Source of the DNA: a virus | Strand: one strand, 5' to 3' | Virus record (IMG/VR): IMGVR_UViG_3300020220_000041 | DNA: 64,000 nt | Shown here: in pieces, positions 11,244 through 37,858 of the stretch | How the letters are laid out: each line of letters opens with the position of its first letter | Numbering within the stretch: the stretch's first letter is position 1 | The notes under the pieces: model-generated | Seen by the model: the letters and a program-made list of their open reading frames with translations, nothing else | What the model was told of the DNA's origin: nothing | Database searches by the model: none | Position numbers and translations under genes: made by a program

Positions 11244-11248
11244 GAGGG

Positions 11249-11461
11249 CTACGAGTCTTGGGGGTTGCGTTTGGAGGAGCGGCACGTTCTGCACCACGCC
11301 TGATCTGCGATCACGTCGACGCCGTTCCTGCCTGCCCCAATCTTCCGCCGCAATCCGAAGTCGTTGATCTCCTTGAGATCGCCGCAACAGGGGCATTTCT
11401 TGTAGGGCTTGCCGTCTCGAAGTTCGTCGATGTGGATGTTGATGGTGTCTCGCACCCCCAC
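11249..11461 (-). CDS. Small Zn-ribbon protein
   Basis: 70 aa with KKCPCCGDL...CRTCRSSKRN. Confidence 0.5.
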   Translation of the reverse strand: MGVRDTINIHIDELRDGKPYKKCPCCGDLKEINDFGLRRKIGAGRNGVDVIADQAWCRTCRSSKRNPQDS

Positions 11462-11498
11462 CTCCAGTGCCTACTCCCCCTACGCAAAAGAGGGGGCG

Positions 11499-12038
11499 TC
11501 ACACCGTGCGGTGGACGCTTTTCTCAGAGGAGAACCCCTCTGGATACCGGGCCTTGAGCTTGGCCGTGTTGCGGTCACACACCAACTGAAGGCTTACGCC
11601 GGCCATTTCAGCGAGGCTGTCCGCCGAACGCAGAACCAGGCCCAGTCCGGAACGAATCCGTTCCACGTCGGCCGGGTGATTGTGCCCGACCACCTTCTTC
11701 AGGTAGTCCGTCACCTTGCCGGCGTTGACGGACAACTCGGTGGCGTGCCCCAGGAAATCGTCCTGTTCCATGGGGACAGCCTCCTTGGGGGGCATCTCGA
11801 TGCTCTCGAGGGAGATGCCCACGACAGAGGCGGTCTCGGCGATGTACCACATGCAGTCGCCGATCTCCTTGATAAGCACGTCCCGCTCGAAGGGTTGCGC
11901 GGCGTTGTGGTGGTACACGAGGTCAAGCACCTCGGCGGCCTCACCCGCCAGCCCCATCCCCGCGACGGCCAGGCGGAGGGTCTTGTCCGCCGTGTGGTTT
12001 GCGGTTCGCAGCGCGTTCGCCTGGTAGTCGTTCAGCAT
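11499..12038 (-). CDS. MazG-like nucleotide pyrophosphohydrolase
   Basis: ANALRTAN...LAVAGMGLAGEAAEVLDLV...EIGDCMWYIA is typical of phage MazG (the EExxE region). Confidence 0.65.
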   Translation of the reverse strand: MLNDYQANALRTANHTADKTLRLAVAGMGLAGEAAEVLDLVYHHNAAQPFERDVLIKEIGDCMWYIAETASVVGISLESIEMPPKEAVPMEQDDFLGHATELSVNAGKVTDYLKKVVGHNHPADVERIRSGLGLVLRSADSLAEMAGVSLQLVCDRNTAKLKARYPEGFSSEKSVHRTV

Positions 12039-12097
12039 GTAGCGTCCTCGAAGTCGATGACTTCTCTATACCGAGGGGGGGTGAGAGGTCTGACCCC

Positions 12098-13342
12098 ATG
12101 TCTGATGCGGCCCTTCGGCACCACCTCATCCGTCTGGCACACGCACATCCCGAAATGCGGCCCGCACTGCTTCCTTTGCTGAGGAGTGCGCGGGAGTTCC
12201 CGAACGAGGAAGCTCGGAAGAAGTACCTCGAGGACCATCCGAACGCGGACCCCGCCAACCACACCGTGGCGAAGCCGGACGACAAGGGCGATGAGGGTGG
12301 GGGCAAGGCCGCCCCGAAGAAGCCCAAGAAGCTGTTCTCGGACGATGAGATGAGCCTCCCCTCGGTGGCTCGTCAGTCTGTGAGCGACCCCGCCAAGCTG
12401 ATGGAGCAGGCCACGGAGGCGCATGAGCAGCAACTCAACTGGCTCAACCACGGCAAGGGTCTCGACAAGGCCGTGGGCGGCAAGGTGATTCGGTGCGATG
12501 AGATCGACTGCACCAAGGCTGGAGCGGTCGACTACGACCAGGAGGGTCCGATCATCGTCATCGGTCCCGTGAAGAAGAAGCACCGGGTCGAGGAGAAGGT
12601 GGAGAAGGACTACGACGGAGACTGGTCTCGCGTCGGCGATCTGGTGCGCTCCACGGTGGCCTTGGACTCGATGGACCAGGTTGAGGAGGTCATGGACAAG
12701 CTGCGGGCCTCTGGGCTCAAGCTCGCCCGTCCTCCCAAGGACCGTTTCGCGAACCCGACGGACGCGGGCTACCGCGACCTGATGATGAACGTGGTGTACC
12801 CCAATGGGCACATAGGGGAGCTTCAGATCCACCTGAAGCCGATTCTGAAGGCCAAGGAAGAAGCTCACGGAGCCTACGAAGAAGTCAGCGCGATCGGAGC
12901 CAAGGCCAAGAAGGAAGGGCGCACCGACTTGACCGACGAAGAAGCCGCCAAGGTGGACGAGGCGATGCAGAAGATGCGCGACATCTACGAAGCCGCGTGG
13001 AAGAAGTCGACCGCCGCGAAGGGTGGCAAGACCGCAGCCGGAGGGCTCAAGCGCATGGCAGCCAAGGTGCAGTACTTCGACCTCGACGGGATGCCCGCAC
13101 TGTGGGAAGCCAAGAAGTTCCCGGTTCGCCTCTCACCGAAAGGCAAGGAGGTCGTGATCTACGAGTTGGACGAGTTCTTCAACCAGGCCACGCCCATCTC
13201 GAAGGACGCCTATGACAAGCTCGTGAAGGAGAACGCCCCGAAGGAGAAGAAACAGAAGGAAGGTTCCCTTCGGCTGGCGACTATCCGTCTGGCACAGACG
13301 AACTCACAGCTTCGCCCACACCTCCTCGCCCTGCTGAAGTAG
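12098..13342 (+). CDS. RelA/SpoT-fold (RSH-like) nucleotidyltransferase with RLAHAHPE terminal motifs
   Basis: GYRDLMMNVVYPNGHIGELQIHLKPI matches the RSH synthetase motif GYxSxHxxV...EIQIRT. Upstream, KHRVEEKVEKDYDGDWSRVGDLVRSTV matches the G-loop/ITDLxGxR region. N-terminus MSDAALRHHLIRLAHAHPEMRPALLPLL and C-terminus LRLATIRLAQTNSQLRPHLLALLK. The ATG is at 12098 with a GAGG RBS. Confidence 0.5.
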   Translation: MSDAALRHHLIRLAHAHPEMRPALLPLLRSAREFPNEEARKKYLEDHPNADPANHTVAKPDDKGDEGGGKAAPKKPKKLFSDDEMSLPSVARQSVSDPAKLMEQATEAHEQQLNWLNHGKGLDKAVGGKVIRCDEIDCTKAGAVDYDQEGPIIVIGPVKKKHRVEEKVEKDYDGDWSRVGDLVRSTVALDSMDQVEEVMDKLRASGLKLARPPKDRFANPTDAGYRDLMMNVVYPNGHIGELQIHLKPILKAKEEAHGAYEEVSAIGAKAKKEGRTDLTDEEAAKVDEAMQKMRDIYEAAWKKSTAAKGGKTAAGGLKRMAAKVQYFDLDGMPALWEAKKFPVRLSPKGKEVVIYELDEFFNQATPISKDAYDKLVKENAPKEKKQKEGSLRLATIRLAQTNSQLRPHLLALLK

Positions 13343-14458
13343 GTGCCCATGTTCGACGCACATCGAGTCGCATTCCGCTACCTGGCCTCCCGAGATGTCG
13401 AGGCGGCGGGCACCGAAGCGGACATCACCCGGAACCTTCCCACGTTCCTTCAGGCCATGGGCAACCTCTCTGCCGCCATCATGGACAACCAGGCGAAGGG
13501 CAAAGCGGGCGACTCGTTGAGTGCTCGCTACGACGCCAACGGGCCTTGGGTGGCGTTGATTCGGGCGGGGGGTCCGTTGGTGGACGGCATTCTGTCCACC
13601 CGGAGCATCCCGGCTCGTGACGCCAAGGGGATGGAGATGGCGTACCGGCTGATGCACAACAGCCGCCGGATGCCCCAGGATGTCTACAAGTGGTGGGACG
13701 CCAACCTCAAGCGGCTCGACCTGATCACACAGGCAGCGAGGACGTGGGCTCCCAAGCAAGAGGGTTCGGACGAACTGTTCACCCTCGGGTCCTTCAAGGT
13801 CCACAACACGGTGGGGGCCAAGGGGGCCGAACTCGACTCCCTCAAGAACGCCATCGAGCGTGTCGAGAACCTGAGCCGGGCGAACCCCATCCCCGGGTTC
13901 TCTCGGGTCGTGTACGGGGACATCCACGTCGTCGCCCGCATCACGAAGGCCCACCACGCTGCCTGGTACTTCCCCGGAGATGACAGCCTCTACCTACGTC
14001 GGTCCGCGACCACAGGAATCGACGAGGTTCACGCGATGATCCACGAGTTGGGCCATCGTTTCTGGCACAGGTTCGCTCCCGAGGACGCGAAGAAGGAATG
14101 GCAGCGGCACCATTGGCAGGTCGAGGGCAGGCCCGTCGAGGTGGACCTCCCCCAGGTCGGCGACCCAATCCCGGTGAAGATCCCCAAGATCAAGGAGTAC
14201 CCGACCATCACCCGGATCGAGGGCGGTCGGTACTACTACGAGGTCGACATCGGTGGCGGAGAGATGTGGAGGAACTCGCTCTCCGCCATGAAGGTGCGGG
14301 AGTTCTTCACCACGCAACAGAGGGCGGCGAAGAACTTCCCGACCGCCTACTCGGCCCAGAGCGCCGAGGAGCACTTCTGTGACGCCCTGGCGTTGTTGGC
14401 GATGGGGAATCTCACGGCACAGCACGAGATTCCCTTCAACGCCATCTGGAAGCGGTGA
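13343..14458 (+). CDS. Putative HExxH zinc metallopeptidase
   Basis: 371 aa containing VHAMIHELGHRFWH. Confidence 0.45.
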   Translation: MPMFDAHRVAFRYLASRDVEAAGTEADITRNLPTFLQAMGNLSAAIMDNQAKGKAGDSLSARYDANGPWVALIRAGGPLVDGILSTRSIPARDAKGMEMAYRLMHNSRRMPQDVYKWWDANLKRLDLITQAARTWAPKQEGSDELFTLGSFKVHNTVGAKGAELDSLKNAIERVENLSRANPIPGFSRVVYGDIHVVARITKAHHAAWYFPGDDSLYLRRSATTGIDEVHAMIHELGHRFWHRFAPEDAKKEWQRHHWQVEGRPVEVDLPQVGDPIPVKIPKIKEYPTITRIEGGRYYYEVDIGGGEMWRNSLSAMKVREFFTTQQRAAKNFPTAYSAQSAEEHFCDALALLAMGNLTAQHEIPFNAIWKR

Positions 14459-14461
14459 ACC

Positions 14462-15538
14462 TCAGTCGATGCCGCACACCGTCTTGAGGATGCGGGCGGT
14501 CACGACGTAGGGGTCGACGTTCGCACAGGGGCGGCGGTCCTCGAGGTACCCGGAGCCCTTCTCCTTCACGGAGCGGGGGATGCGGATGCTCGCCCCCCGG
14601 TTCGCGATGCCCCAGCGGAACTCCTTGTACGAGCAGGTCTCGTGCTTCCCGGTGAGTCGAGCCTCGATGCCATCCCCGTAGCAGGCGATGTGCTCCGCGT
14701 GCTTCTCCCCGAGCTTCTCGCAGGCGGACTTGATGGCGTAGATGCCGAACTTCTGCTGGGACTCCCGATTGGCCTTCTCGTCCGTGCCGCCGAAAGAGGC
14801 GGGGTCAAGCCGCATCGCCGCCGTCGAGAAGTTGGTGTGGGCACCGGCACCGTTCCAGTCACCACGGGCGGGCTTCGGGTCGAGGGAGGCGTTGATCTCG
14901 TGGTCCTCTCCGAGCCGGTAGAGGAGCCAGCGGGCCAGCCACAGGTGGTCCGCCACCGTGAGCGGGTCCGAGGTCCCGATCTGGAACTCCCACTGGCCGG
15001 GCATGACCTCGGCGTTGGTCCCGTAGAGCAGGAGCCCGGCGTCGAGGCACGCCTTCGTGTGGGCCTCGATCAGAGGGCGACCAACCACCTCGTCGGCTCC
15101 GACGCCGCAGTAGTAGGGGCCCTGGGGAGCCGGGTAGCCGTTGTCCGGGAAGCCGAGCGGACGGGAGCCCTTGAACAGGGTGTACTCCTGCTCGATGCCG
15201 AACCAGGGCTCTTCGACAGCGGCACCCGCGTCGAGGACACGACGAAGCTCGGCCCGGGTGTTCGACTTGTGCGGGGTGACCTCGTCGCCGTTGAGGACTT
15301 CGCACAGGACGAGGTAGTTCGGGACGCCTCGAATCGGGTCCGTGACGACGCGAACGGGCTTCAGAGCGCAGTCAGAGTCGTGACCTTCGGCCTGGTACGT
15401 GGACGAGCCGTCGAAGCCCCACACGGGGAACTTGTCCGGGGTCGGCTCCCCCTCGATCTCCACAATCCGGGTCTTGGAACGTAGCTTCTGGGTGGGCGCG
15501 GCTCCGTCCATCCAGATGTACTCTGCCTGTGAACGCAT
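14462..15538 (-). CDS. glnII: Glutamine synthetase type II
   Basis: YIWMDG...LRSKTR, GIEQEYTLF, GPYYCGVGA, AEVMPGQWEFQIG, GAHTNFST and ASIRIPR. The length of 358 aa is typical of GSII. Confidence 0.8.
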   Translation of the reverse strand: MRSQAEYIWMDGAAPTQKLRSKTRIVEIEGEPTPDKFPVWGFDGSSTYQAEGHDSDCALKPVRVVTDPIRGVPNYLVLCEVLNGDEVTPHKSNTRAELRRVLDAGAAVEEPWFGIEQEYTLFKGSRPLGFPDNGYPAPQGPYYCGVGADEVVGRPLIEAHTKACLDAGLLLYGTNAEVMPGQWEFQIGTSDPLTVADHLWLARWLLYRLGEDHEINASLDPKPARGDWNGAGAHTNFSTAAMRLDPASFGGTDEKANRESQQKFGIYAIKSACEKLGEKHAEHIACYGDGIEARLTGKHETCSYKEFRWGIANRGASIRIPRSVKEKGSGYLEDRRPCANVDPYVVTARILKTVCGID

Positions 15539-15582
15539 GGGTGTCCTCCGATGAGCGAGGGCACCCTACCGAGCGGTCAGGT

Positions 15583-16008
15583 TTAATCTCCACCACCTCC
15601 GCCCCCGCCACCATCACAACCGCCGCCCGAGTCGCTGCTGCCCGAGTCGTAGCCGCCTCCGCAGTCCGAGGAGTGGGAGGAGTCCGAGGAGTGTCCGTGG
15701 GAGGAGCCCCAGTCCGAGGAGTGGATGTGGCGAGCCGGAGGGTCGTCGTAGAACGGGATGGCCGGCACGTACACGGGGGTGTCGTCCGTTGGGTTCGGTG
15801 TGCTGGGCGACGGCTTCCGGTCCCGAGTCTGTGCGGGTTGGGGCCGGTGGAGCGACGGCTTTTCCGGTCGATGCGGAGGAGGTGGGGGGAAGGCCCTGTA
15901 GATGTCCTCGTCCTCGATCGCGACATCTCTCCGGGAACGCCAGAGCATCACGCAGGCTCCGAGAACGAACCCGAGGGACAGCACGCCTAAGATGATGAGG
16001 ATCTCCAC
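15583..16008 (-). CDS. Membrane protein with Pro-rich and Ser/Gly-rich tail
   Basis: N-terminal TM helix MEILIILGVLSLGFVLGACVMLW, then PPPPPHRP, then a poly-Gly/Ser C-terminus. Confidence 0.45.
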   Translation of the reverse strand: MEILIILGVLSLGFVLGACVMLWRSRRDVAIEDEDIYRAFPPPPPHRPEKPSLHRPQPAQTRDRKPSPSTPNPTDDTPVYVPAIPFYDDPPARHIHSSDWGSSHGHSSDSSHSSDCGGGYDSGSSDSGGGCDGGGGGGGGD

Positions 16009-16034
16009 GGGTTCTCCTTACGGGGCCTGTTGCG

Positions 16035-16361
16035 TCAGTGGTACATACCGACCAACATGAGTTCGAGCTTCCGCCCCCGTTCTGTCGGGTAGGGGACGAC
16101 TTCACCCCCATCCTTCTCGATGGACTTCCAGCCTTCGGTGCCCATCCGTAGGGCGGCACAGACGAGCGGCGGCCACTTGAACTGCTCGGGTCGGAGGACG
16201 GCGAAGAGAACCATCTCGTCGGGGGCCTCGTCGTCGTGGTAGTGCTTGCCCTTCTCGAAGACGACGCGGACGACTTCGCGGACGCCATTGCGGTTGGTGA
16301 TCGTCCACCATCGGGGCGACCCGGCGAGGGGCATCTCGACTTTGTTCTCTCGAATGGCCAT
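16035..16361 (-). CDS. Hypothetical protein
   Basis: The real part begins MAIRENKVEMPLAGSPRWW. Its ATG overlaps the upstream stop as ATGA. Confidence 0.5.
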   Translation of the reverse strand: MAIRENKVEMPLAGSPRWWTITNRNGVREVVRVVFEKGKHYHDDEAPDEMVLFAVLRPEQFKWPPLVCAALRMGTEGWKSIEKDGGEVVPYPTERGRKLELMLVGMYH

Positions 16362-16681
16362 CACGCCCCCAGCATGGGTTGGACGGTGAAAAACACATGG
16401 TTCTGGGAGGTCCGCAGCCATTCCCGCATGTCCGTGTCGCTGGGGGCCTGGCTGAAGCTGTTGGCGCTGTTGCGGCTGAAGCAGTACTCCTTCGGGGTCT
16501 GGAGCCCTTGCTGGGCGACCACACAGGTGCGACCCCGGGTCGCCTCCTCGTCCACCCATCGGGCGGCGTCCCTCAGATCCATGAACACGGCGACGATGCT
16601 CCCCCCGTGCATCACGACGAACTCGTGCGGCATCGGCTGCACCAGGGAGCCGTCTCGGACGGTCGCGTTCCAGTACACCAC
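16361..16681 (-). CDS. Hypothetical protein
   Basis: GTG start 1 nt after the upstream TGA. The sequence ...VYWNATVRDGSLVQPMPHEFVVMHGG... is protein-like. Confidence 0.4.
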   Translation of the reverse strand: MVYWNATVRDGSLVQPMPHEFVVMHGGSIVAVFMDLRDAARWVDEEATRGRTCVVAQQGLQTPKEYCFSRNSANSFSQAPSDTDMREWLRTSQNHVFFTVQPMLGA

Positions 16682-16682
16682 C

Positions 16683-16910
16683 TCAATCCCCGGAGGAATG
16701 ATGTGGTACTCGTAGAGGGGGGTAGCTGAGGGCCTCTTTCCCGAAGTGCGAGGCGTTGTACGCCTGGACCCGCAAGAGGTCGTGCTCCTTCTCCATCTGC
16801 TCGAAGCGAGCCGCGTCCGCACCTTCGGCAAAGACGGCTCGGGCCCTCCAATGACGGAGAGCCACGGAGCGGCAGAGGAACAGGTGGCGGGTCGAAAGGT
16901 CCAGGAGCAT
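16683..16910 (-). CDS. Hypothetical protein
   Basis: MLLDLSTRHLFLCRSVALRHW..., with a GGTAGAGG RBS and a GCGTACAAAGGGG -10-like element. Confidence 0.4.
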   Translation of the reverse strand: MLLDLSTRHLFLCRSVALRHWRARAVFAEGADAARFEQMEKEHDLLRVQAYNASHFGKEALSYPPLRVPHHSSGD

Positions 16911-16983
16911 GTCAACCTCTACCCCTTTGTACGCGGCTGAAAGCGGATGGGGGAGTGAGGATGTCCCCCACTCCCCCAAGTCT

Positions 16984-17628
16984 TTACGGAACCTCGATGA
17001 AACGCAGGGTTTCCGCGTTGTTGTAGAAGCGGATGCCCATCTCCTCGACATCGCGACCGCTCTGCTCGTGGATGTGTCCGAACAGGTGCGCCACGATGCG
17101 GTGGGGGCGGTAGGAGAGCGCCCGGGTCAGCGGGCGGTTCCCGCAGCCGTGACCCCCACCGTTGTCGTCGTCGAGGATGCCCGCCGCCGGAGCGTGGGTC
17201 ACGAGGATGGTGGGGTCCGCCTCGAACACCCGATCGACCATCGGGCTGAGGTCGTGCTCCTCACCGTTCCACTCACCCGCAATCCAGGGGATCTCCCGCA
17301 TTCCGGCGATACGGTGACCGTCGATCTCGACCGCTTCCACGGTCGCGTCGAAAGCCGCCTCATAGCCGTTCTCCCGGAGAAGCTCGGCGAGGTTCACGTA
17401 GTCGTGGTTGCCGCCCACCCACACCACCGGCTTGCCGCCGAAGCGCGCGATGAGGCTGCCCACAACCTGCTTGAACCAGGCCGCCTGGAAGGCGGGCTCG
17501 ATCTCGCGGTCACCACGAGTCGCATTGGGGAAGAAGTCCCCGCTGCACACCCACACATCGGGAAGCTCGCTCGAGCCGAGGAGCTTGCTGACGTTGCCGT
17601 GAAGGTCGCTGAAGTGCCCGATACGCAT
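16984..17628 (-). CDS. Calcineurin-like metallophosphoesterase
   Basis: MRIGHFSDLHG, GDFF, VGGNHDY and FGHIH motifs. ATG at 17628 with a GGAGAGG RBS. Confidence 0.7.
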   Translation of the reverse strand: MRIGHFSDLHGNVSKLLGSSELPDVWVCSGDFFPNATRGDREIEPAFQAAWFKQVVGSLIARFGGKPVVWVGGNHDYVNLAELLRENGYEAAFDATVEAVEIDGHRIAGMREIPWIAGEWNGEEHDLSPMVDRVFEADPTILVTHAPAAGILDDDNGGGHGCGNRPLTRALSYRPHRIVAHLFGHIHEQSGRDVEEMGIRFYNNAETLRFIEVP

Positions 17629-17644
17629 GGTGTCCTCTCCGAAC

Positions 17645-17681
17645 ACCTATACTACGCAGCACCCCCGACGACCTGAACCTT
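17645..17681 (-). promoter_or_regulatory. Conserved promoter-like motif: AGGTTCAGG-N14-GCGTAGTATAGG
   Basis: Full copy, 17 nt upstream of the metallophosphatase start. Confidence 0.5.
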
Positions 17682-17682
17682 C

Positions 17683-18498
17683 CTAGAAGTCGTCGTCGGA
17701 GGTCTCGTCCTCGGGCTCCTCGCGGCCGTAGAAGTCGGAGAACTTCGCGGCACCCCCGGCCCGAAGGCCGAAGATGTCGAGGTCGAACACGGCCTGGTAG
17801 CGGTTGGTGCTCGGATACCGGCCTCCGATCTCCTCGCACTTCGCCACCATCCGGCGGTAGTCCTCCACCGTCGGCATCCAGACGAACTGGATGCACTGGT
17901 CGCGACCCGGCTCCGCGTTGTAGCTCGGAATCCGGTTGACCTCGCCCGGCTTCTGCCACCGGTCCTCGGCCTCGAGCCGGATGTCGTCCCGCTTCCGCAG
18001 GATCTCGAGCGCCTTGTCCAGACGGTAGACGGTGTTGTCGAACCGGCCGTCGATGTAGGAGAACCGCATCGCCACGGGGAGCGGGCGCTTGTCCACGTCG
18101 AACAACTGGTGGCTCGAGCCCTGGAAGAACACGATGTCCTGGGCGGTCGCCGACCCCTCCATGAACCGGGTGTAGGGGGTCTTGGAGAGGATCTCGCACT
18201 CCTTGTAGAACTGGTCCGAGCCCCAGCCATACTCACGAGCCAGGGTGAGGAACGCGGGGGTGGCCAGAAGGGCTCCCCACTCCTTCGTGTACGAGGGCAT
18301 GTCCGCAGCCCCCTTCTGGTAAGCCAGGAGTGCCGCCTTCGAGGTGATGCCCTCGGTGACGGTGACGTGCGGCTTCCGACGACCGGACTTCGTGCTCATG
18401 GTGACGCGAAAGACGATCACGTCCTCGTAAACCGCGAGGTACTCGACCACCTTCTCGGTGGTCACGACGGTCTTGGAAGTCATGGTCTGCGGGGTCAT
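17683..18498 (-). CDS. Hypothetical protein
   Basis: 271-aa protein-like ORF with an acidic C-terminus. It is preceded by an AGGTTCAGG -35-like element plus a variant -10 at 18510-18549. Confidence 0.55.
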   Translation of the reverse strand: MTPQTMTSKTVVTTEKVVEYLAVYEDVIVFRVTMSTKSGRRKPHVTVTEGITSKAALLAYQKGAADMPSYTKEWGALLATPAFLTLAREYGWGSDQFYKECEILSKTPYTRFMEGSATAQDIVFFQGSSHQLFDVDKRPLPVAMRFSYIDGRFDNTVYRLDKALEILRKRDDIRLEAEDRWQKPGEVNRIPSYNAEPGRDQCIQFVWMPTVEDYRRMVAKCEEIGGRYPSTNRYQAVFDLDIFGLRAGGAAKFSDFYGREEPEDETSDDDF

Positions 18499-18509
18499 GT
18501 TGTCTCCCT

Positions 18510-18549
18510 ACATCCCTTGTTGCGCCCGGCGATCCGAAACCTGAACCTT
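18510..18549 (-). promoter_or_regulatory. Variant promoter-like motif: AGGTTCAGG-N14-GCGCAACAAGGGATG
   Basis: The -35-like half is identical. The -10 half is the GCGCAACAAGG variant. Confidence 0.4.
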
Positions 18550-18588
18550 GCGGTGACGGTTCTATAGCTGGGACGGATTGGAGGAGGG

Positions 18589-19596
18589 TTGATGCCCTCA
18601 CACGGCATTTGTCTCCGGCTCACGCACACAGGCGTTGTTCCGTCCAACCTGTTCGTGGCCGATGTCCACGACGGCGTGGACGTAAACGGGCGTCGTGCGA
18701 ACGCGAAGCCTGGCCCCCTCTACGTCCCCTTCGGTACCAGCATCGACCTCGTATACACCACACAGGTGGCTCAGTCGTTCGAGACAGGGAACATCCGAGT
18801 CTGGGTGGACATGGGCTACCTGACGGCGGAGTTCTTCTTTGGCACCGAGTTCACGGCTGAAGTAGCAGCCGAATCGGCCATAGAGGTGCAAGACGAGAGC
18901 ATCACCGTCGAAGACATTGCCCACACTTTGAACTTCGTTGGGACGGGGGTAGATGCCACTTCACCATCAGCGGGGGTGGTCGAAGTAGCCATCCCTGGTC
19001 TGTTGGTTCAAGACGATGGTGCAGATGTTGAGGAGCCCACCACTACGCTGAACTTTCTGGGGCCACTCCATGCGACATCGCCCTCGGCGGGTGTAGTCAA
19101 TGTCTCCGTCGCAGGAGTAGGTGGGGCCGTCGTTGTCGAGCAGGACAACGCTGTGGTGCAGGCGACCACGACGGTTCTCAACTTCATCGGTCCGGGACTC
19201 GAAGCCACGGATGCGGGCGGGGGTCAGGTTGATGTAGTAGCAACGGGCACCCTCGGGACGCTGACGTTCGAACTTGGACCTATCCAAGACATCGACGCGG
19301 TGACGGACCAGTTCCTCCCAACGACGACGGCTCATCGGTTCACCGTCACTGGCGGGAACTACACGCTCACCTCGACCCCGACCATCAACTGGCCCGGTGC
19401 GGTGGCTGGTCAGATCGTCGTGTTGATGAACGTCAATCCCAGTGGCTCGAATCACGTCATCTTGAATCGGGGTGTCGCCGAAGGGCTTCGGTTGAGCAAC
19501 GCCAGCAGGAAGCTCGACCCTGGCGGCTCGATGACGCTCATGTACATCGGCTCGGTGTGGGTGGAACTCACCCACACCGAAAGCACAACGACCTAG
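18589..19596 (+). CDS. Repeat-containing fibre-like structural protein
   Basis: Three ~40-aa repeats: TLNFVGTGVDATSPSAGVVEVAIPG, TLNFLGPLHATSPSAGVVNVSVAG and VLNFIGPGLEATDAGGGQVDVVATG. Confidence 0.5.
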   Translation: MMPSHGICLRLTHTGVVPSNLFVADVHDGVDVNGRRANAKPGPLYVPFGTSIDLVYTTQVAQSFETGNIRVWVDMGYLTAEFFFGTEFTAEVAAESAIEVQDESITVEDIAHTLNFVGTGVDATSPSAGVVEVAIPGLLVQDDGADVEEPTTTLNFLGPLHATSPSAGVVNVSVAGVGGAVVVEQDNAVVQATTTVLNFIGPGLEATDAGGGQVDVVATGTLGTLTFELGPIQDIDAVTDQFLPTTTAHRFTVTGGNYTLTSTPTINWPGAVAGQIVVLMNVNPSGSNHVILNRGVAEGLRLSNASRKLDPGGSMTLMYIGSVWVELTHTESTTT

Positions 19597-19599
19597 CGC

Positions 19600-20178
19600 C
19601 TATTCGTCTACGATGTTCGCCCAGGCGGCTTCCCAGCGAGCCTTGGCTTCAGCCGCTTCCTTCTCGTCCTTGGGGCACTGCATCTCGTAGCCCCCGTGGT
19701 GAACGAGGGGCTGCTTGCACTCCTGACAGGGGACATCGCGGTACTCGCGTGCCCACAGGTGCTCGACCCCGGAGAAGTCGGAGTTGGCTTCGACCCACCG
19801 CCGCTCCTCCACAGAGAGTGCGCGGGCCTCCATCACCTCGAACTCGCAGTCCTCTCCGCTCCCGATCATCCGTCCGTGGAGGACGTAGAGGCCGTCAGGC
19901 TCCTTTTCCATGGCGTAGGCGAGGGTCTGGAGAGCCGCACCCGAGTCTCCGCTCACCTCCCAGTCCCAACTGGCTCCCATGGAGGCGAGGACTTCGACGT
20001 GGCCGCTTCGTCCGCCCGACAGGCTCCCTTTCTCCGGAGGAGGGCCGCCCATGTAGACGATGAGGATGCGGGACCACACCTTTCCTACGTCATGGGAAGG
20101 CTCGTAGTGCCCGCTCTTGTACAGTTCGAGGCTGACGATGTTGCTGGGCGCGTCGAGGTCGAGGCGGTCGTTGGACAT
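19600..20178 (-). CDS. Hypothetical protein with C-terminal Zn-binding motif
   Basis: The real part begins MSNDRLDLDAPSNIV (ATG at 20178). It has PCQECK...CPKDE. The track ORF's N-terminal extension is R/H/G-rich read-through. Confidence 0.5.
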   Translation of the reverse strand: MSNDRLDLDAPSNIVSLELYKSGHYEPSHDVGKVWSRILIVYMGGPPPEKGSLSGGRSGHVEVLASMGASWDWEVSGDSGAALQTLAYAMEKEPDGLYVLHGRMIGSGEDCEFEVMEARALSVEERRWVEANSDFSGVEHLWAREYRDVPCQECKQPLVHHGGYEMQCPKDEKEAAEAKARWEAAWANIVDE

Positions 20179-20180
20179 CG

Positions 20181-20906
20181 TTATGCCCCCCGAACGAAGC
20201 CGTAGGATTCGGAGATGTTCACGTCCACCTTGACCCCCTGCTCGGCGAGCGTGGTGTCCGGGGTCGTACCGTAGAAGGTGTTGTTCCCGGCCTTGACGCC
20301 GACGACCTTGTATCCGGCCTTGTAGCCGATGTAGAAGCCGTGATCGACGTTGGTGACGGGGACGCCGTTCGCGTCGGGCATCATCAACGTGGACGTGTGG
20401 AACGCCCGCATGGCGGTGAGGGCGTTGAACATGATGTCCCCGAGGGTGCGCCCGTAGGCCAACCGCGAGAGCCGGTTCGTGGACCGGGTGATCCGACGCA
20501 TCCGCTCCACGAGGGTGATGCCGGAGCCGTAGCCCTCCTCGGTGCAGTCGGACATGGAAGCGAGGAACAGCCACAGGGCTTCCCGACGCCACGCACCGGA
20601 GATGTCCTCGAACGGACCCTTGAAGTCGAGGGGGAGCCCCTGACCCTCGAGCAGGATGCCAGGACCGCGCCAATGTGCGGATTGAATCGCCTCCATTCCA
20701 GAGGCTTCGGTGAGATTGAGCGAAGCACAAATCTCTTTGAACTCATCCGGACAGATGAGGGCGAGGAGAAGTGGATCGGGTCCTTGCACCAAGACCCGGT
20801 TCAGGACCGTGCAGTCTTGAACCGCTGCCGGATCCTCCGAGAAGGTGAGATCCATCAAGAATGGAAGAAGGGCACTGCGAACACGATCTTGGTCTTTATG
20901 TGCCAT
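20181..20906 (-). CDS. Hypothetical protein
   Basis: 241-aa ORF with protein-like composition. Confidence 0.5.
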   Translation of the reverse strand: MAHKDQDRVRSALLPFLMDLTFSEDPAAVQDCTVLNRVLVQGPDPLLLALICPDEFKEICASLNLTEASGMEAIQSAHWRGPGILLEGQGLPLDFKGPFEDISGAWRREALWLFLASMSDCTEEGYGSGITLVERMRRITRSTNRLSRLAYGRTLGDIMFNALTAMRAFHTSTLMMPDANGVPVTNVDHGFYIGYKAGYKVVGVKAGNNTFYGTTPDTTLAEQGVKVDVNISESYGFVRGA

Positions 20907-20948
20907 CGAGAAGCCTCACCGATAATCCATCTATAGTCTACTCGATGT

Positions 20949-21566
20949 ATGCGACAAGCACACACCCTTGCAGAGATTACGTCTGACTTGACCCTTCTGA
21001 ACCTCGGGGGCTGGAACGACCCCATTTTGGTGAGTTGTACTCGATGTGGGGAGACCTGCCCGAAGAAGAAGCACCACATTCGACAAGCAATCAAGGCGAA
21101 ACAAGTGGGGCTGTTCTGCTCGAAATGTCGTGTTGCTTCCTACCGTCGCGAGCAAACACTCGTGGAGCAAGACGGAGAGCAAGGTCGGGTTTGCATCAAG
21201 TGTGGTGTGTGGAAACCGCTCAGAAAGTTCTCTTCGGGTTCTATGTCTCGCACCTGCGCCTACTGTTGGGGTCAGCGTCCGAACATCCGGTTCCACGAGT
21301 ATGAACGCAGGGCCGCGTCAAGGGGGTACCCGTTCTCCCTCACCTTCGAGGAGTTCATGGGGTTCTGGGGGAAACCTTGTTCCTACTGTACAGGGCAAAT
21401 TTCTGGAATCGGCCTCGACCGCATCGACAACGAGAAAGGCTACGCCTTGGACAACGTGACACCCTGTTGTGAGACGTGTAACCGCATGAAACTCCAGATG
21501 GATCGGGCGGAGTTCATACAACATTGCCGTAAGATCGCATCGTCTCACCCCAATGTCGTGGCCTGA
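20949..21566 (+). CDS. HNH endonuclease (AP2-HNH type)
   Basis: GLDRIDNEKGYALDNVTPCCETCNRMK plus an N-terminal Zn-ribbon. Confidence 0.7.
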   Translation: MRQAHTLAEITSDLTLLNLGGWNDPILVSCTRCGETCPKKKHHIRQAIKAKQVGLFCSKCRVASYRREQTLVEQDGEQGRVCIKCGVWKPLRKFSSGSMSRTCAYCWGQRPNIRFHEYERRAASRGYPFSLTFEEFMGFWGKPCSYCTGQISGIGLDRIDNEKGYALDNVTPCCETCNRMKLQMDRAEFIQHCRKIASSHPNVVA

Positions 21567-22108
21567 ACCTGTCGGGCGACAAGAAGTTCCTCGAGCCACT
21601 CGCGGTGGGTCCCAAGCATCCGCACCGGGGCGTACTGGCCCTCGGTCGGGTCGGGGGCGATCTCTTCGCTGGGCCTCCGGGTGTCGGGCTCTGCCACGAG
21701 GAGCTTCGGGTACAGCGTTTCGTACCGGATGAGGAGGGGCACCACCTCGTGCCACCCGCTGATCTGGTAGGGGAGCCACCACTTGTAGCGAGGCCACAGG
21801 ATGCCCCGGTTGGCCTCCATCAAGTAGAAGCGACTCCCGATGAGGCGACCCGTCAGGGTGCCCCGGTCGAAGGGCACATCGACCTTCTGGTGGAGCACGT
21901 CCCGCAGCCCGTCGAGCAGGATGGCGATGGTCTTGGAGTCGCGGGGCATCCACGGCACCTTGTCCGCCCGCACGAGGGTTTCGGTCCTGGAGCCGGGGTT
22001 GTAGAACACGAGGTTGGTGGGGCACACCCGAGAGCGAGTGCGTTGGGCACCCACACAGATGTTGCCGTCCTTGTCGCGGGCTCCGATCACAGCCGGGAAG
22101 TCGAGCAT
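21545..22108 (-). CDS. Hypothetical protein
   Basis: 187-aa protein-like ORF. Confidence 0.5.
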   Translation of the reverse strand: MLDFPAVIGARDKDGNICVGAQRTRSRVCPTNLVFYNPGSRTETLVRADKVPWMPRDSKTIAILLDGLRDVLHQKVDVPFDRGTLTGRLIGSRFYLMEANRGILWPRYKWWLPYQISGWHEVVPLLIRYETLYPKLLVAEPDTRRPSEEIAPDPTEGQYAPVRMLGTHREWLEELLVARQVQATTLG

Positions 22109-22111
22109 GGG

Positions 22112-22342
22112 TCACGCGGCGGGGACGTGGAACAGGCGGCGACCATTGACGGAGATGAGCACCTGCAACCCCTGGGCGTTCACGAACTCGAACCAGCCCT
22201 CGCGGTGGAGCAACACGGGGGTCCAACCCTCGAGGTCGGAGTCCGGGTGGAACGCTTTGGCGGTCCAGAGCGCAGCCAGGGCGTAGGTGTTGACCCGCGT
22301 GCCCGCTGCGATGGGGATGGGAGAAAGTTGAGCGGTCATCAT
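22112..22342 (-). CDS. Hypothetical protein
   Basis: 76-aa ORF. Confidence 0.4.
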   Translation of the reverse strand: MMTAQLSPIPIAAGTRVNTYALAALWTAKAFHPDSDLEGWTPVLLHREGWFEFVNAQGLQVLISVNGRRLFHVPAA

Positions 22343-22394
22343 TGCGACCTCCTCACCTCCCTACGCACCTGGGCCTGAAAGCTGAACCCGCCAG

Positions 22395-22595
22395 CTACGG
22401 GCGGGCACGGACCTCGTCAGCACACCGGGTCCAAGCAGCCTCGGAGGGATCGTCGCCCGTGCATTCGAGGGTGGCGAGCAAGAACTCGTTGTGCGGGCGG
22501 ACCCACGCGAAGTACCAGATGCCGCAAGCGGCGAGGAAGAGGCCCACGATGGCGGCCATTCCACGGATTTCGTTACGCAGTTCGGAGGGGGACAT
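22395..22595 (-). CDS. Small membrane protein
   Basis: 66 aa with the hydrophobic segment AAIVGLFLAACGIWYFAWV. Confidence 0.4.
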   Translation of the reverse strand: MSPSELRNEIRGMAAIVGLFLAACGIWYFAWVRPHNEFLLATLECTGDDPSEAAWTRCADEVRARP

Positions 22596-22620
22596 GGGGA
22601 CTCCTGGGGATTCCTGGGGG

Positions 22621-22896
22621 TTACTTGGAGAAGTACCAGCCGTAGCTGTAGGTCTTGCCGTCTTCGGCGAAGGTCTTGGTCAGGTGGTACACCGTGACCG
22701 GCTCCTCGGACCAGGGAACTCGAACCTCGGCGGTCTTGCTGAAGGTCTGTTCCCCGATGACCGTGCGGACCGTCCCGGAAGCCTCGACCACGTTGCGAAG
22801 CACGCGGTCGTAGGACTTCTGGTGCCAGGGGTCAGCGCCCTGGCAACCACAGTTACAGGGCTCGATCCGCTTCGTGATGGTGGTCTTGGTGCTCAT
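22621..22896 (-). CDS. Hypothetical protein
   Basis: 91 aa. A full promoter-like motif ends 1 nt before its ATG. Confidence 0.5.
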   Translation of the reverse strand: MSTKTTITKRIEPCNCGCQGADPWHQKSYDRVLRNVVEASGTVRTVIGEQTFSKTAEVRVPWSEEPVTVYHLTKTFAEDGKTYSYGWYFSK

Positions 22897-22933
22897 GCCT
22901 CTACTACGCAGAGACGTGCCAGACCTGAACCTC
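22897..22933 (-). promoter_or_regulatory. Conserved promoter-like motif: AGGTTCAGG-N14-GCGTAGTAGAGGC
   Basis: The GAGG of the motif doubles as the RBS. The ATG follows directly. Confidence 0.5.
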
Positions 22934-22946
22934 TACTGCTCCGAAA

Positions 22947-23513
22947 TCAGATCATGCTGTTGAGGATTTCGTCGGCCTTCGCGATCTGCTCGGGGCTCAT
23001 GTAGGGCTTCATCTTGCTCGGGCCGCACTTGTAGGTGCGCCAGGGCTGCCCCTCGGGGCTCACGATGAACGACCGCTTGACCTGGGCGACGACCACGTAG
23101 TTCTTGCCGTAGATACGGCACTTGTCGCCCGGCTTGAAGCTCTTGGACTGCGTACCCTTGCGGGTCTCGGCCACCTCGCGAACCCGCTTCCGCCAGGCCA
23201 CCGCGTAGTCCTCGGTGGGCTCGGTGGTCATGTCGAGGAGTTCGACCGGGCAGTCGATCTCGACCGGCCCCATGAACTCGTCGATCTCTTTCACCGCGTA
23301 GCCGTAGTCCCCGCCCGTGCGGCTGCCCGAGATCAGGTAGAGGATTACGAACTTGAGCTTCGGCGTCTGAATCGCCACCCACAGGTGACGGCCGTAGGAA
23401 GTGCTGCGATGAGCCAACACCACCTGGCCTACGTCAGGGCGGTTGAGGTCGCGGAGAGTTTCCTCGCGCACCGTTGAAGGGGAAGTCCAGTTTGGGGAAG
23501 AAGTCCAGCCCAT
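22947..23513 (-). CDS. Hypothetical protein
   Basis: 188-aa protein-like ORF. Confidence 0.5.
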   Translation of the reverse strand: MGWTSSPNWTSPSTVREETLRDLNRPDVGQVVLAHRSTSYGRHLWVAIQTPKLKFVILYLISGSRTGGDYGYAVKEIDEFMGPVEIDCPVELLDMTTEPTEDYAVAWRKRVREVAETRKGTQSKSFKPGDKCRIYGKNYVVVAQVKRSFIVSPEGQPWRTYKCGPSKMKPYMSPEQIAKADEILNSMI

Positions 23514-23530
23514 CGTCGTAGTCTCCTTAC

Positions 23531-23567
23531 ACCATTACTACGCAGAGGCCCGGCCAAACTGAACCTC
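23531..23567 (-). promoter_or_regulatory. Conserved promoter-like motif: AGGTTCAGT-N14-GCGTAGTAATGG
   Basis: Full copy upstream of 22947-23513. Confidence 0.5.
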
Positions 23568-23626
23568 AATTCGTCGTTGGCGAGCCTATACACGGAGAGC
23601 GATGAGAACTCTCCGTGGAGATCCCT

Positions 23627-24958
23627 ATGTCTGACCGTCTCCTGCGTGCTGGTCTGATCCGGCTGGCCCATGCCCACCCCGAGTTTCGGGCCGACATTCT
23701 GCCGCTGGTGACGGCCACCTACGAGCAGGACGTGGCGCAAGACGCGGACCCGAACTCCAAGGATCAGTCGAAGGCCGACTACTGGAACGGCCTCGCCCCC
23801 CAGAAGCCTGCGATCGACGAGCCCGCCCTCCCTCCCAAGACGGCAGCGGGGGCCATTGGGCCAAGCCTCGCCAAGATGAAGAACGACACCAATTTGTCGT
23901 TCTCCGATGGTGCAAACACGGTGTTTGCCCATGTCTGGTTCGACACCGGGGTGGCGCAGTACGACCGGGGTGGGGTTGCGCCTGACAGCGGTGAGTGGGA
24001 CGTCATGGTCAGCACCAGTCCCGACCGGTTGAACCTCAACCCTCGCGGAAAGGAGTTGGGCCGTCAGACTTTCCGTTACGCAGAGGCGCGTTCCCGCCCC
24101 ATCGTTCTTGACGCCGCCGAGAAGTACATCGTCACGATGCTTGCGCGGCACCGCTCCAAGACGGCGAAGCTCATGTCCCGTCAGGAGACCCTTCTCCAGA
24201 AGTACATGGAGACGGCGGCTCGGAGCGGGGGACGGGCGGCCACGGGCTGGGACGAGTTGCCCGATTCCGTCCGCAAGGCCCTCCGTGCGGTGAAGGATCA
24301 GGAGACGTTGTGGATGGACGTGGACCGCTGGTTCATGGACAACGCTCCTCCAGGTGGACTCCGTTGGGCCTCGGGCGAGGGTCAGTCGGCGGACGACTAC
24401 TGGAATGGGCTCGAGCCGAAGAAGCCCGCCATCGACGAGCCTGCTCTCCCGCCGAAGCAGGCCGCGTCCAAGACGGCGTTTGAAATCAAGATTGAGTACA
24501 AGGTTCGAGGCGGCCCGTGGCAGACCAAGCAGTTCAGGAATGGCCGTGAGTTCGAGGCTTGGTCCGACAAGATGCAGAAGGTACCCGGCTTCGAGATCAA
24601 CCCCGATTCTGTCGATGGTCACTCCGAGGAGTATCTCCGCAGCCTCCTCGCCAAGAACCAGTCGAAGGCCGCCGCGTGGGAGAACCTCCCGCCGGGATGG
24701 ACGCAGGAGTCGGTTCAGAGCTTCTGGGACAGCCTCACGGGCGACGTGAAGCACAAGGTCACCAAGTGCATGAAGGAGATGGAGGGCAAGGTGGACAACA
24801 CCGGAGCCTTCTGTGGCTCCCTCGGTGCCGCCGTGGGCTACCGGGCGGCCTCGTCTGGGAAGAACGCCTCTCTGTTTCGGAAGGCGGCCATCCGGGTTGC
24901 TCACGAGAACCCCGAGCATCGGGCGGCCATCCTCCCCTCCCTCTCGAAGAAGGCTTGA
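23627..24958 (+). CDS. RLAHAHPE-motif protein with internal DYWNGL...PAIDEPALPPK repeats
   Basis: N-terminus MSDRLLRAGLIRLAHAHPEFRADILPLV and C-terminus AAIRVAHENPEHRAAILPSLSKKA. A ~35-aa internal repeat occurs twice. Confidence 0.55.
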   Translation: MSDRLLRAGLIRLAHAHPEFRADILPLVTATYEQDVAQDADPNSKDQSKADYWNGLAPQKPAIDEPALPPKTAAGAIGPSLAKMKNDTNLSFSDGANTVFAHVWFDTGVAQYDRGGVAPDSGEWDVMVSTSPDRLNLNPRGKELGRQTFRYAEARSRPIVLDAAEKYIVTMLARHRSKTAKLMSRQETLLQKYMETAARSGGRAATGWDELPDSVRKALRAVKDQETLWMDVDRWFMDNAPPGGLRWASGEGQSADDYWNGLEPKKPAIDEPALPPKQAASKTAFEIKIEYKVRGGPWQTKQFRNGREFEAWSDKMQKVPGFEINPDSVDGHSEEYLRSLLAKNQSKAAAWENLPPGWTQESVQSFWDSLTGDVKHKVTKCMKEMEGKVDNTGAFCGSLGAAVGYRAASSGKNASLFRKAAIRVAHENPEHRAAILPSLSKKA

Positions 24959-25025
24959 GGCCCATCCTCATCCCCGGTCGGGGACGAACGTGAACACCTT
25001 GTTGACCCTTTCAGGAGACCACCCC

Positions 25026-25748
25026 ATGTCTGACGCCGCTCTTCGCAAGCAACTGATTCGCCTCGCCCATGCGAACCCCGAGATGCGCCCTCACATCCTC
25101 CCCCTGCTCCGCGAGGCTGGGACGGTGAAGAAGGCACACGGGCCGGTCGCCATCCAGGGGCCGCAGGTGATGCTGTACGCCATCGACGCCGAGAAGAACC
25201 AGTCGAAGTTCTACGAGATGACGGTGGTTCCGTTCGGCACCACCGTGGACCGGGCTCGTCCGACCGTGAAGAAGGACAAGGACTTCCGCCGGATGGGCAT
25301 GGGCGGCTACACGCTCGCGAAGCGGTGGGGCCGTCTCACGGACACGGGCGGCATCTCCGGCCGGTTCGACGGCATGGACGAGTTCTACGACAGCGAGGCG
25401 GCGGCTCTCGGTGCGATGCGGGCCACCAAGGCCGACAAGATGCGTGGGTCGGGTTCGGCCGCGTACAAGGATGTGTCGGACACCCGGGAGTACCCGATCG
25501 GCCTCGGGGCCGCAGGGTTCGGTTGGGGCGGCCAGGCGGCCTGTGCCTACATCCCCGAACTGGCGGAACTCCACACGGCGATCGAAGCCAACCTCAAGAA
25601 CGTCACGCGCCTCAAGGCATACGTGGCGGCCATCGCTCGACGGGACTCGTCGATGGGTAAGAAGCTCGACCTGATGCTCGAGCCGCTCATCGAGCAGATG
25701 TCGTCCATCGACACCTACCTCGAGATGCAACTCTCCGAGTGCCGGTAA
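25026..25748 (+). CDS. WGR-domain protein with N-terminal RLAHANPE motif
   Basis: N-terminus MSDAALRKQLIRLAHANPEMRPHILPLL. SKFYEMTVV...YTLAKRWGRLTDTGG matches the WGR domain. Confidence 0.5.
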   Translation: MSDAALRKQLIRLAHANPEMRPHILPLLREAGTVKKAHGPVAIQGPQVMLYAIDAEKNQSKFYEMTVVPFGTTVDRARPTVKKDKDFRRMGMGGYTLAKRWGRLTDTGGISGRFDGMDEFYDSEAAALGAMRATKADKMRGSGSAAYKDVSDTREYPIGLGAAGFGWGGQAACAYIPELAELHTAIEANLKNVTRLKAYVAAIARRDSSMGKKLDLMLEPLIEQMSSIDTYLEMQLSECR

Positions 25749-35997: not shown

Positions 35998-36500
35998 AGG
36001 GCGGATAACCTACGCAGTTCCGCTGAAATCAGCCGATCTTGGCTTGCGTACTGTGCCTCGAACCCGCTCGCCTTTTCGTCGTCTTCCCGCCACCAGCGAG
36101 GCGCTGGCGAGAACCCGTGCTCATCCGCAATCCACTGCTCCTGACGTTCGGTCGGAGTGGGCCACTCCGTTGCAAGGAGGATGGGTTCCGAGCGTTGGTT
36201 GTCGAGGTTGAGCCAGGGGACAGACTTCAGGATGCCCTCGCCTTTGAAGGGTCGGCGTTTCCCGACTCGGAGGGCCATCCACTTGAGGACCGCATGTTCC
36301 CAGTCGTGGGGGCTGTTGAACCCGAGTTGGAGGGGGCCGTGTCCGTACTTGATGCCCCCTTGCTGAACGAGCCCCTGGAAACGGGGCCGAAGTCCCGTCG
36401 CCAGCACTTCGGACCCATCCCTGAGATGCTTCTCGGCGAAGGCCACCATCTCCCCGAGAGCCGCTTCAGAGCGGCAGGTGAAGGAGAAGCTGTAGCCCAT
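35979..36500 (-). CDS. Hypothetical protein
   Basis: The real part begins [26 protein letters not shown]. Its ATG overlaps the asnS stop as TGATG. Confidence 0.5.
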
Positions 36501-37840: not shown

Positions 37841-37858
37841 GAAACACCTCAACGCCCA

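Follow-up and report, generated by a model that had tools for sequence, protein, structure and literature searches.

A strongly constrained protein module, predicted to form two helices, on unrelated proteins of uncultured huge phages

Three genes and five module copies in the window

The LIRLAH module is a short peptide carried at the ends of three genes in a 64,000-nucleotide stretch of viral DNA (IMG/VR record IMGVR_UViG_3300020220_000041; GC content ~63%), which was analysed at its full length and is referred to as the window. The three genes were identified as open reading frames (ORFs) on the + strand, namely gene A (12098..13342, 414 residues, read together with its translation), gene B (23627..24958, 443 residues) and gene C (25026..25748, 240 residues), and JGI gene calls made independently on the contigs of the source metagenome give identical products for B and C. 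The N-termini of all three proteins fit MSDxxLRxxLIRLAHAxPE[MF]Rxx[IL]LPL[LV], and related copies close A (...LRLATIRLAQTNSQLRPHLLALLK) and B (...FRKAAIRVAHENPEHRAAILPSLSKKA), as an earlier note made from the letters of this DNA had pointed out. When a hidden Markov model (HMM) of the five copies was run over all six frames in stop-to-stop pieces, it found exactly these five in the window, with domain E-values from 1e-14 to 6e-19 and a next-best match at E~1. Pairwise BLASTP revealed no similarity among A, B and C beyond the module, indicating that they are not full-length paralogues and that their central domains are indeed unrelated, as the earlier note had also held.

Protein A consists of an N-terminal module, a conserved EFPxxEAxKxYLxxHPxAD element, a RelA/SpoT-type (RSH) synthetase core, a beta/alpha C-terminal domain and a second module. 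The N-terminal copy (12098..12187, +) covers residues 1-30 with a domain E-value of 2e-16, and the C-terminal copy (13256..13339, +) covers residues 387-414 with 1.6e-14, its last residue being the last residue of the protein. The nucleotidyltransferase core (12569..12868, +; residues ~158-257) was delimited with Pfam RelA_SpoT and the alignment to Tas1. Although the RelA_SpoT match of A itself (E 0.0024, 18.6 bits) lies under the gathering cut-off of 27, PF04607 is recorded on several of its about 90 homologues, and the profile of the A family matched Tas1 in the PDB (6ox6, E 7e-8) over an alignment spanning the PxKxxxRxxxK, D-x-V-R and G-E-L-Q motifs. Foldseek placed Tas1, CapRel, Rel, RelP and RelQ on top with probabilities of 0.99-1.0. 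All the RSH catalytic motifs (the basic ATP-binding motif, D-x-x-R and E-x-Q) are present in A; K159, K167, D181, R184, E241 and Q243 are aligned to those of Tas1 and do not vary across 81 homologues. Taken together, motifs and predicted structure identify the core of A as a Tas1-like RSH synthetase fold, in agreement with the RSH-like nucleotidyltransferase assigned to it earlier. Tas1 is a (p)ppApp synthetase toxin of the type VI secretion system that depletes ATP. Compared with Tas1, small alarmone synthetases and CapRel, A has the synthetase fold and motifs in common with them, whereas its additional N- and C-terminal domains and its two modules set it apart; no defence family in PADLOC matched it.

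Protein B, encoded throughout on the + strand, carries its modules at 23627..23713 (domain E 3e-17) and 24860..24949 (residues 412-441; domain E 6e-16). Between them lie a linker motif (ADYWNGLAPQKPAIDEPALPPK, 23774..23839), a domain without known family, a second copy of the linker motif (DDYWNGLEPKKPAIDEPALPPK, 24392..24457), a small domain and a Cys-containing domain (WENLPPGW...KCMKEMEGKVDNTGAFCGSL, 24671..24841), both linker motifs being read from the translation. The earlier note had described the centre of B as a repeat domain; the repetition is real and amounts to two 22-residue linker motifs (DYWNGLxPxKPAIDEPALPPK), whereas the remainder includes the Cys-containing domain towards the C-terminus. 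No Pfam, PHROG, NCBIfam or PADLOC family was found for B. The Cys-containing domain recurs as the whole body of the 126-residue protein P0202, where it has a module on either side, and it gave no tblastn match in deposited phages. A relative of the linker motif, DQNKPESYYGLPP, follows the module in many members of the WGR family to which C belongs, and the related motif DQNKPESYYGLPPKGVQA stands immediately behind the module in many WGR-family proteins. The system may have its second short linear motif in the linker motif of B.

In protein C, the N-terminal module (25026..25115, +; domain E 6e-19) is followed by a short linker, a probable WGR domain (25158..25445, +; residues ~45-140) and a long helical hairpin. 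The WGR domain had been guessed in the earlier note, and this guess is supported by PF05406 being on record for most of the 97 homologues of C, 68 of which carry the module. C itself stays slightly below the Pfam gathering threshold for WGR (E 6e-4, 20.4 bits versus a cut-off of 22), and the WGR chains of PARP1 and PARP2 came out on top in Foldseek with weak E-values of 0.015-0.1.

Conservation, predicted fold and distribution of the module

The consensus of the module extends over ~24-28 residues and reads L-R-x-x-L-I-R-L-A-H-x-N-P-E-L-R-x-x-L-L-P-L-L-K. Over 417 distinct copies, A14 is conserved at 100%, R21 at 99%, P18 and L25 at 95%, L6 at 91%, P26 at 90%, R7 and L13 at 88%, R12 at 86% and I11 at 84%; the other core positions are L10, H/Y15, N17, E19, L20, L24, L27, L28 and K29. 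Such near-invariant positions are at odds with a common low-complexity helix, the trivial origin that the earlier note had considered. By place in the protein, 208 copies are N-terminal, 182 internal (between domains) and 71 C-terminal, with 1-5 copies per protein and one profile at every position. N-terminal copies begin 2-5 residues past the initiator Met, and proteins with a C-terminal copy end 0-3 residues past K29. A division into complementary N-type and C-type copies, distinguished by T10 versus L10, was rejected (p=0.06), the profiles being otherwise identical. We also observed a long-loop variant, LIRLASSLPxGSxxRRALL (L-I-R-L-A-S-x-[LF]-P-x-G-S-x-x-R-[RK]-A-L-L), which fills the same N-terminal slot in seven proteins, six of the WGR family (P0042, P0049, P0056, P0071, P0080 and P0081) and one of the A family (P0255). 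The existence of this variant implies that the module superfamily is broader than what the five-copy profile retrieves.

AlphaFold2 models of A and C, computed with family alignments, reached a mean predicted local distance difference test score (pLDDT) of 91 and 86, respectively. The terminal copies, for which the earlier note had recommended structure prediction, were modelled as a helix-turn-helix in these two different proteins (pLDDT ~80-95). In A, the N-terminal copy has helices at residues 3-16 and 18-28 (pLDDT 87-95) and the C-terminal copy at 391-401 and 406-413 (pLDDT 91-95); in C, the helices span residues 3-16 and 21-32 (pLDDT 71-93), and a predicted low-confidence linker with pLDDT<50 at residues 34-36 stands right behind the module. 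The module is thus modelled as a pair of short amphipathic helices, with an Asn-Pro-Glu capping turn between them. Nine or ten of its 24 positions are conserved hydrophobic ones, and R21 would fall inside the hydrophobic face of helix 2.

Conservation of the module acts on the peptide, as indicated by its scrambled codons. Where two copies of the window have identical amino acids, the codons agree at only 3/21 to 8/18 positions, and over 60 copies from 22 genomes or contigs, identical residues share their codon at a rate of 0.36-0.55 within and 0.35 between genomes. This scrambling excludes gene conversion and recent duplication as well as an element at the DNA or RNA level as its origin. Together with the BLASTP result, this also disposes of recent duplication of the three genes along their full length, which the earlier note had named as one of the findings that would overturn its interpretation. 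The amino-acid identity of copies is 0.74 within versus 0.67 between genomes, a difference matched by 0/2000 permutations. This higher likeness within genomes, seen in sequence comparison, is compatible with co-evolution of all copies of a genome with one partner.

Run exhaustively with HMMER against 1.84 billion representative proteins, the five-copy profile retrieved 2,492 protein clusters with E<=1e-3, of which 204 reached E<=1e-10. In IMG/VR, we found 23 module loci on viral contigs of 52-485 kb, frequently as runs of adjacent tagged genes, and homologues of A and C lie on contigs reaching ~550 kb. Of the 50,697 phage genomes on deposit, searched as the earlier note had proposed, only one carries the module, namely LR745208.1, a complete genome of 485 kb from an uncultured phage, with 11 tagged ORFs scattered over both strands, 10 of which have a single N-terminal copy. 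No match to deposited phages was obtained by megablast with 20 kb of the window, nor did an exact 42-mer from it turn up in IMG/VR. The species genomes of GTDB were scanned with DNA patterns, and a codon-restricted first pattern gave 0 matches, while a codon-complete pattern for IRLAHxxPELRxxLLP gave 3, all on short contigs of metagenome-assembled genomes among 185,579 species genomes; these three contigs look like mis-binned phage fragments.

No model in Pfam, NCBIfam, PHROGs or PADLOC lies over the module in A, B or C. A 67-copy module profile found nothing in the PDB sequences better than E 0.1, that match being a designed repeat protein, and in the searchable literature the motif strings occur in no paper and no relevant huge-phage targeting peptide is described. 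The remark in the earlier note that it recognised the motif from no described system is borne out across all these resources. Taken together, we conclude that the LIRLAH module is a genuine protein module under strong constraint, uncatalogued so far and specific to uncultured huge phages.

Carriers of the module and a second N-terminal element

Besides the RSH, WGR and B-type bodies, the module is found on an HExxH zincin-like protein, a GNAT protein, a DUF7717 protein and a protein with a weak ParB-like nuclease match. Nearly all other carriers are without known function, as are all 11 tagged ORFs of LR745208.1; Pfam and PHROG searches with these 11 and with 98 multi-copy proteins returned almost nothing known. 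The module is also optional, being missing from 72/89 homologues in the A family and 29/97 in the C family, and in the C family inserts of up to ~200 residues part it from the WGR core. A single copy is present in 11/11 tagged ORFs of LR745208.1, 68/68 tagged members of the C family and most IMG/VR ORFs. The best-scoring proteins are mosaics of 2-5 modules with charged spacers and other mini-motifs between them, and some mini-proteins consist of little beyond two modules (P0198 with 63 residues and P0111 with 123). In multi-copy proteins the linkers flanking the module are acidic. Among the metagenomic multi-copy proteins P0098-P0118, the spacers hold mini-motifs such as GCEKLPEGxMRDNCEKK (with two Cys), DEPYMKGxFTQQExxEL and EGKPADPTKNMSPED...DKFK, as well as DxDxDG-like acidic loops that recall calcium-binding loops. 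On a 141-kb IMG/VR contig (L042), a 1,238-residue protein with three internal modules is encoded at 11376-15092, preceded by two small tagged genes, and a weak ParB-like nuclease match lies just upstream of its first module. This three-copy protein implies that, in large proteins of several domains, the module also serves to join one domain to the next.

A second N-terminal element, RVAxR[YFW][LM], forms an Arg-rich amphipathic helix (for example RIVARYLQRVA) and is a common start of A-family members that lack the LIRLAH module. It stands in place of the module in at least 15 A-family homologues, at times in two tandem copies. In the window, it begins the gene at 13343-14458 (MPMFDAHRVAFRYLASR) and the UvrD gene beside C (MKSSTNRVASRWMQ; element at 25774-25830, +). 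Two adjacent zincin-like genes at the IMG/VR locus L008 carry one RVASRYL and the other the LIRLAH module, and the A family and the zincin family, which are mutually unrelated, are thus each found with either N-terminal element. From these small numbers of sequences, RVAxRYL may be an alternative and interchangeable address label.

The gene at 13343-14458 (+, 371 residues) starts at the first base past the stop codon of A. Its product has an HExxH motif (MIHELGHRFWH) and a downstream EEHF, and is on these motifs alone putatively zincin-like; its best PDB match was ACE at E 0.02, and no Pfam, PHROG or PADLOC family matched. With 65% identity, the gene is conserved downstream of the tagged A homologue in the syntenic relative L045, and LR745208.1 contains two paralogues of it. 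As a candidate for a tag-specific partner, this zincin-like neighbour was rejected, since its adjacency is compatible with chance (1/23 loci) and is absent in the complete genome.

Other genes of the window are typical of huge phages and include a ThyX-containing protein of 554 residues (6775-8439, -), a glutamine-synthetase-like protein (14462-15538, -), a class II (Asp/Lys/Asn-type) aminoacyl-tRNA synthetase (36500-37852, -), a protein with ArdC-N and an MPTase-PolyVal metallopeptidase (39519-40418, -) and a flotillin/SPFH protein (58956-61031, +), besides a dNMP kinase, a SNF2 helicase and MazG. The UvrD-like helicase gene (25774-30306, +) has an intein-like insert at ~27850-28970, between GDDKQ and SIYEFR, with weak Hint and Intein_splicing matches at residues 692-1035 that split the UvrD-helicase (to residue 693) from UvrD_C (from 1066). 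An ADP-ribosylation theme was also observed, with an ADP-ribosylglycohydrolase at 62127-63164 (+) in addition to the WGR protein C; in L045, a PARP catalytic-domain gene lies at 11187-12125 between glutamine-synthetase-like and metallophosphatase genes.

Proposed docking to a common partner and competing explanations

The module is position-independent, tethered by linkers, optional for the enzymes that carry it, spread over many genes and restricted to phages, which we read as the properties of a docking or address tag. It holds too many conserved hydrophobic residues for stability alone, from which we infer that it binds a partner, and its confinement to large viral contigs suggests that this partner is probably phage-encoded. 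Many unrelated proteins of a broad group of uncultured huge phages are fused to the module at their N-terminus, C-terminus or inter-domain joints via short or disordered linkers; according to this interpretation, one common partner, either a receptor or possibly other module copies, would recognise all tagged proteins of a phage (3 genes in the 64-kb window, 11 ORFs scattered over the complete genome of 485 kb) and gather them at one place. The most likely destination would be the interior or the scaffold of the assembling capsid, so that the tagged enzymes, here the Tas1-like (p)ppApp/ppGpp-type synthetase, the WGR protein and protein B, would be packaged and delivered with the DNA. A rough probability of 0.42 is assigned to this tag interpretation (docking or addressing via one partner shared within the phage), for which loading into the capsid is the leading candidate destination. 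The capsid as destination, taken on its own, is argued by analogy and is more tentative, a possibility to be held with some doubt. Likewise doubtful is the broader proposal that LIRLAH and at least one alternative label, RVAxRYL, bring a varying set of enzymes into the capsid, to be co-injected with the DNA, or else into some other compartment built by the phage; this cargo would then comprise zincins, WGR proteins and the Tas1-like nucleotide pyrophosphokinase besides dozens of proteins without known function.

The analogy draws on several known systems. The T4 capsid targeting sequence is found on the internal proteins IPI-III, Alt and others, comprises ~10 strictly N-terminal residues and is removed by the prohead protease at (L/I)-x-E; the genes bearing it are scattered around the genome, and the cargo includes host-directed enzymes such as Alt. 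The module is likewise a short terminal peptide on unrelated proteins whose genes are dispersed in a large phage genome. However, it is 24-28 residues long, has 182 internal and 71 C-terminal copies, and shows neither a conserved cleavage site nor sequence similarity to the T4 signal. In P22, a C-terminal helix-turn-helix of ~30 residues with a basic face in the scaffolding protein binds the interior of the procapsid shell, and its fusion to foreign proteins loads these into P22 capsids (PMC12005531, PMC9962691). The LIRLAH module resembles this coat-binding domain in being a predicted helix-turn-helix of ~30 residues with conserved basic R7, R12, R21 and K29, but the PDB-wide profile search gave no sequence similarity; moreover, P22 has one such domain on one protein encoded beside the coat gene, whereas here there are many tagged proteins and none was seen beside capsid genes.

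Encapsulin cargo-loading peptides and the encapsulation peptides of bacterial microcompartments (BMCs) are short, terminal, flexibly linked peptides that direct diverse enzymes into a protein shell; those of microcompartments are amphipathic helices at either terminus, and such peptides are shorter than the module and weakly conserved. A terminal amphipathic peptide with a flexible linker is also what we found here, as judged from the low-confidence linker of C and the variable inserts between tag and core. Unlike these peptides, the module consists of two predicted helices and has near-invariant residues, frequently comes in multiple copies and occurs only on huge-phage contigs. We noticed neither BMC shell proteins nor an encapsulin in the annotated contexts, which were not searched systematically for shell genes. 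The dockerin-cohesin system is similar in placing a small unit on many enzymes for assembly on a common partner, and it differs in that here the multi-copy proteins bear the tag itself rather than its receptor; a cohesin-like receptor was not identified. Iyer et al. reportedly described in 2017 polyvalent proteins of phages and conjugative elements, multi-domain and effector-like, which are thought to be delivered with the DNA. The ArdC-N/MPTase-PolyVal protein of the window and the 1,238-residue three-module protein with its weak ParB-like match are reminiscent of these, but the LIRLAH module is not among the described domains and most tagged proteins are small and single-domain. A portable terminal docking tag is thus of a known kind, while the sequence family, the two-helix form and the multi-copy usage are new.

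Several observations weigh against docking to a common partner for capsid loading. No virion genes were found around the tandem tagged array of L042, nor beside the tagged genes of the window and the A-family contexts L043-L045, although few contexts were examined; the neighbours in all of these are DNA-metabolism genes or genes without known function. Among the 50,697 deposited genomes, no cultured phage carries the module. A protease-site consensus behind the N-terminal copies was not found: (L/I/V)xE(A/G/S) follows 20% of N-terminal versus 23% of internal copies, and a prohead-protease-type (L/I)-x-E site stands behind 20-33% of N-terminal copies and is no commoner there than behind internal ones, both being absent in A and B. 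The likeness of copies within genomes could simply mirror shared ancestry. Finally, the multi-copy proteins with charged spacers suit self-association at least as well.

Self-association is indeed the main rival, albeit an unlikely one in our judgement. It holds that modules bind each other, for example two hairpins forming a four-helix bundle, so that single-copy proteins would dimerise or join, while multi-copy proteins would act as multivalent scaffolds of an assembly or condensate that recruits tagged client enzymes. Many proteins with 2-5 copies and charged low-complexity linkers between them, the mini-proteins P0198 and P0111, and the placement of one module at either end of A and B are all in line with this idea, as is the module's surplus of exposed hydrophobic residues, more than a unit of only two helices could bury. 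Both modules of A were predicted with pLDDT of about 90 or higher compared with 71-93 for the lone copy of C, a comparison that is only suggestive. However, the multi-copy proteins come from a score-biased top-150 list, and outside it single copies predominate, including all those of the complete genome and of the tagged C family; furthermore, N-terminal, internal and C-terminal copies show no complementary subtypes, which also speaks against self-association.

Rather less probable is that the module binds nucleic acid or a conserved host machine, such as DNA, RNA, the ribosome or another hub, through R7, R12, R21 and K29, and would in this way tether enzymes to their substrate. The conserved basic residues, including three near-invariant Arg, and the partner domains (WGR, the weak ParB-like nuclease and RSH, a group whose CapRel/toxSAS-type enzymes act on tRNA) are compatible with such binding. 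The net charge of the module is nevertheless only about +2, R21 probably lies within the hydrophobic side of helix 2, the linkers around the module are acidic, and the PDB profile search gave no likeness to solved nucleic-acid-binding hairpins. A ligand of a host hub would also be expected in cellular proteins, from which the module is virtually absent in the species-genome scan.

The earlier note had left open whether the motif is a docking, targeting or processing signal. Its portable terminal peptide on unrelated proteins stands, and docking or targeting is the most economical explanation, whereas the processing version is not borne out and appears distinctly improbable. The latter would make the module a cleaved propeptide as in T4 or phiKZ head proteins, and the multi-copy proteins polyproteins. 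N-terminal placement is indeed the commonest, the module frequently ends in L-K-E-A, which resembles the (L/I)-x-E consensus of the T4 gp21 protease, and an HExxH zincin-like gene abuts A and recurs beside another tagged gene. This is countered by internal and C-terminal copies with an identical profile, by C-terminal copies that end the protein, by cleavage-type sites that are not enriched behind N-terminal copies, and by a zincin adjacency that chance could produce.

Membrane targeting, in which the amphipathic helices would anchor proteins to the host inner membrane, is very improbable. Both helices are strongly amphipathic, flanked by Arg/Lys, located at termini and present in tandem copies. 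Membrane-targeting helices, however, conserve amphipathicity rather than sequence, whereas A14, R21, P18 and P26 are 90-100% invariant here and the turn is a defined Asn-Pro-Glu cap. The chance of a feature at the DNA level or a recent duplication (gene conversion, a recombination hotspot or a shared translation-initiation element) is negligible, since the location at the start and end of genes, in some cases within tandem arrays, is all that speaks for it, while A, B and C have nothing else in common and the scrambled codons effectively refute it.

Huge phages encode hundreds of proteins without known function, and a sequence-defined tag provides a handle on a functionally linked subset of them, which comprises >2,400 clusters in all and 11 ORFs in the 485-kb genome alone. 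Should the tag bring about packaging or localisation to a compartment, the injected or co-localised proteome of these phages would be readable from sequence, the Tas1-fold enzyme may be a weapon of host takeover, and the module would offer a compact and portable tag for loading cargo into phage-derived particles. If LIRLAH and RVAxRYL do serve as loading labels, they would represent a new sequence-defined cargo-targeting system in phages, with a logic akin to that of encapsulin cargo peptides. Whatever its destination, the module is widespread and strongly constrained, and it is held by no domain database at present.

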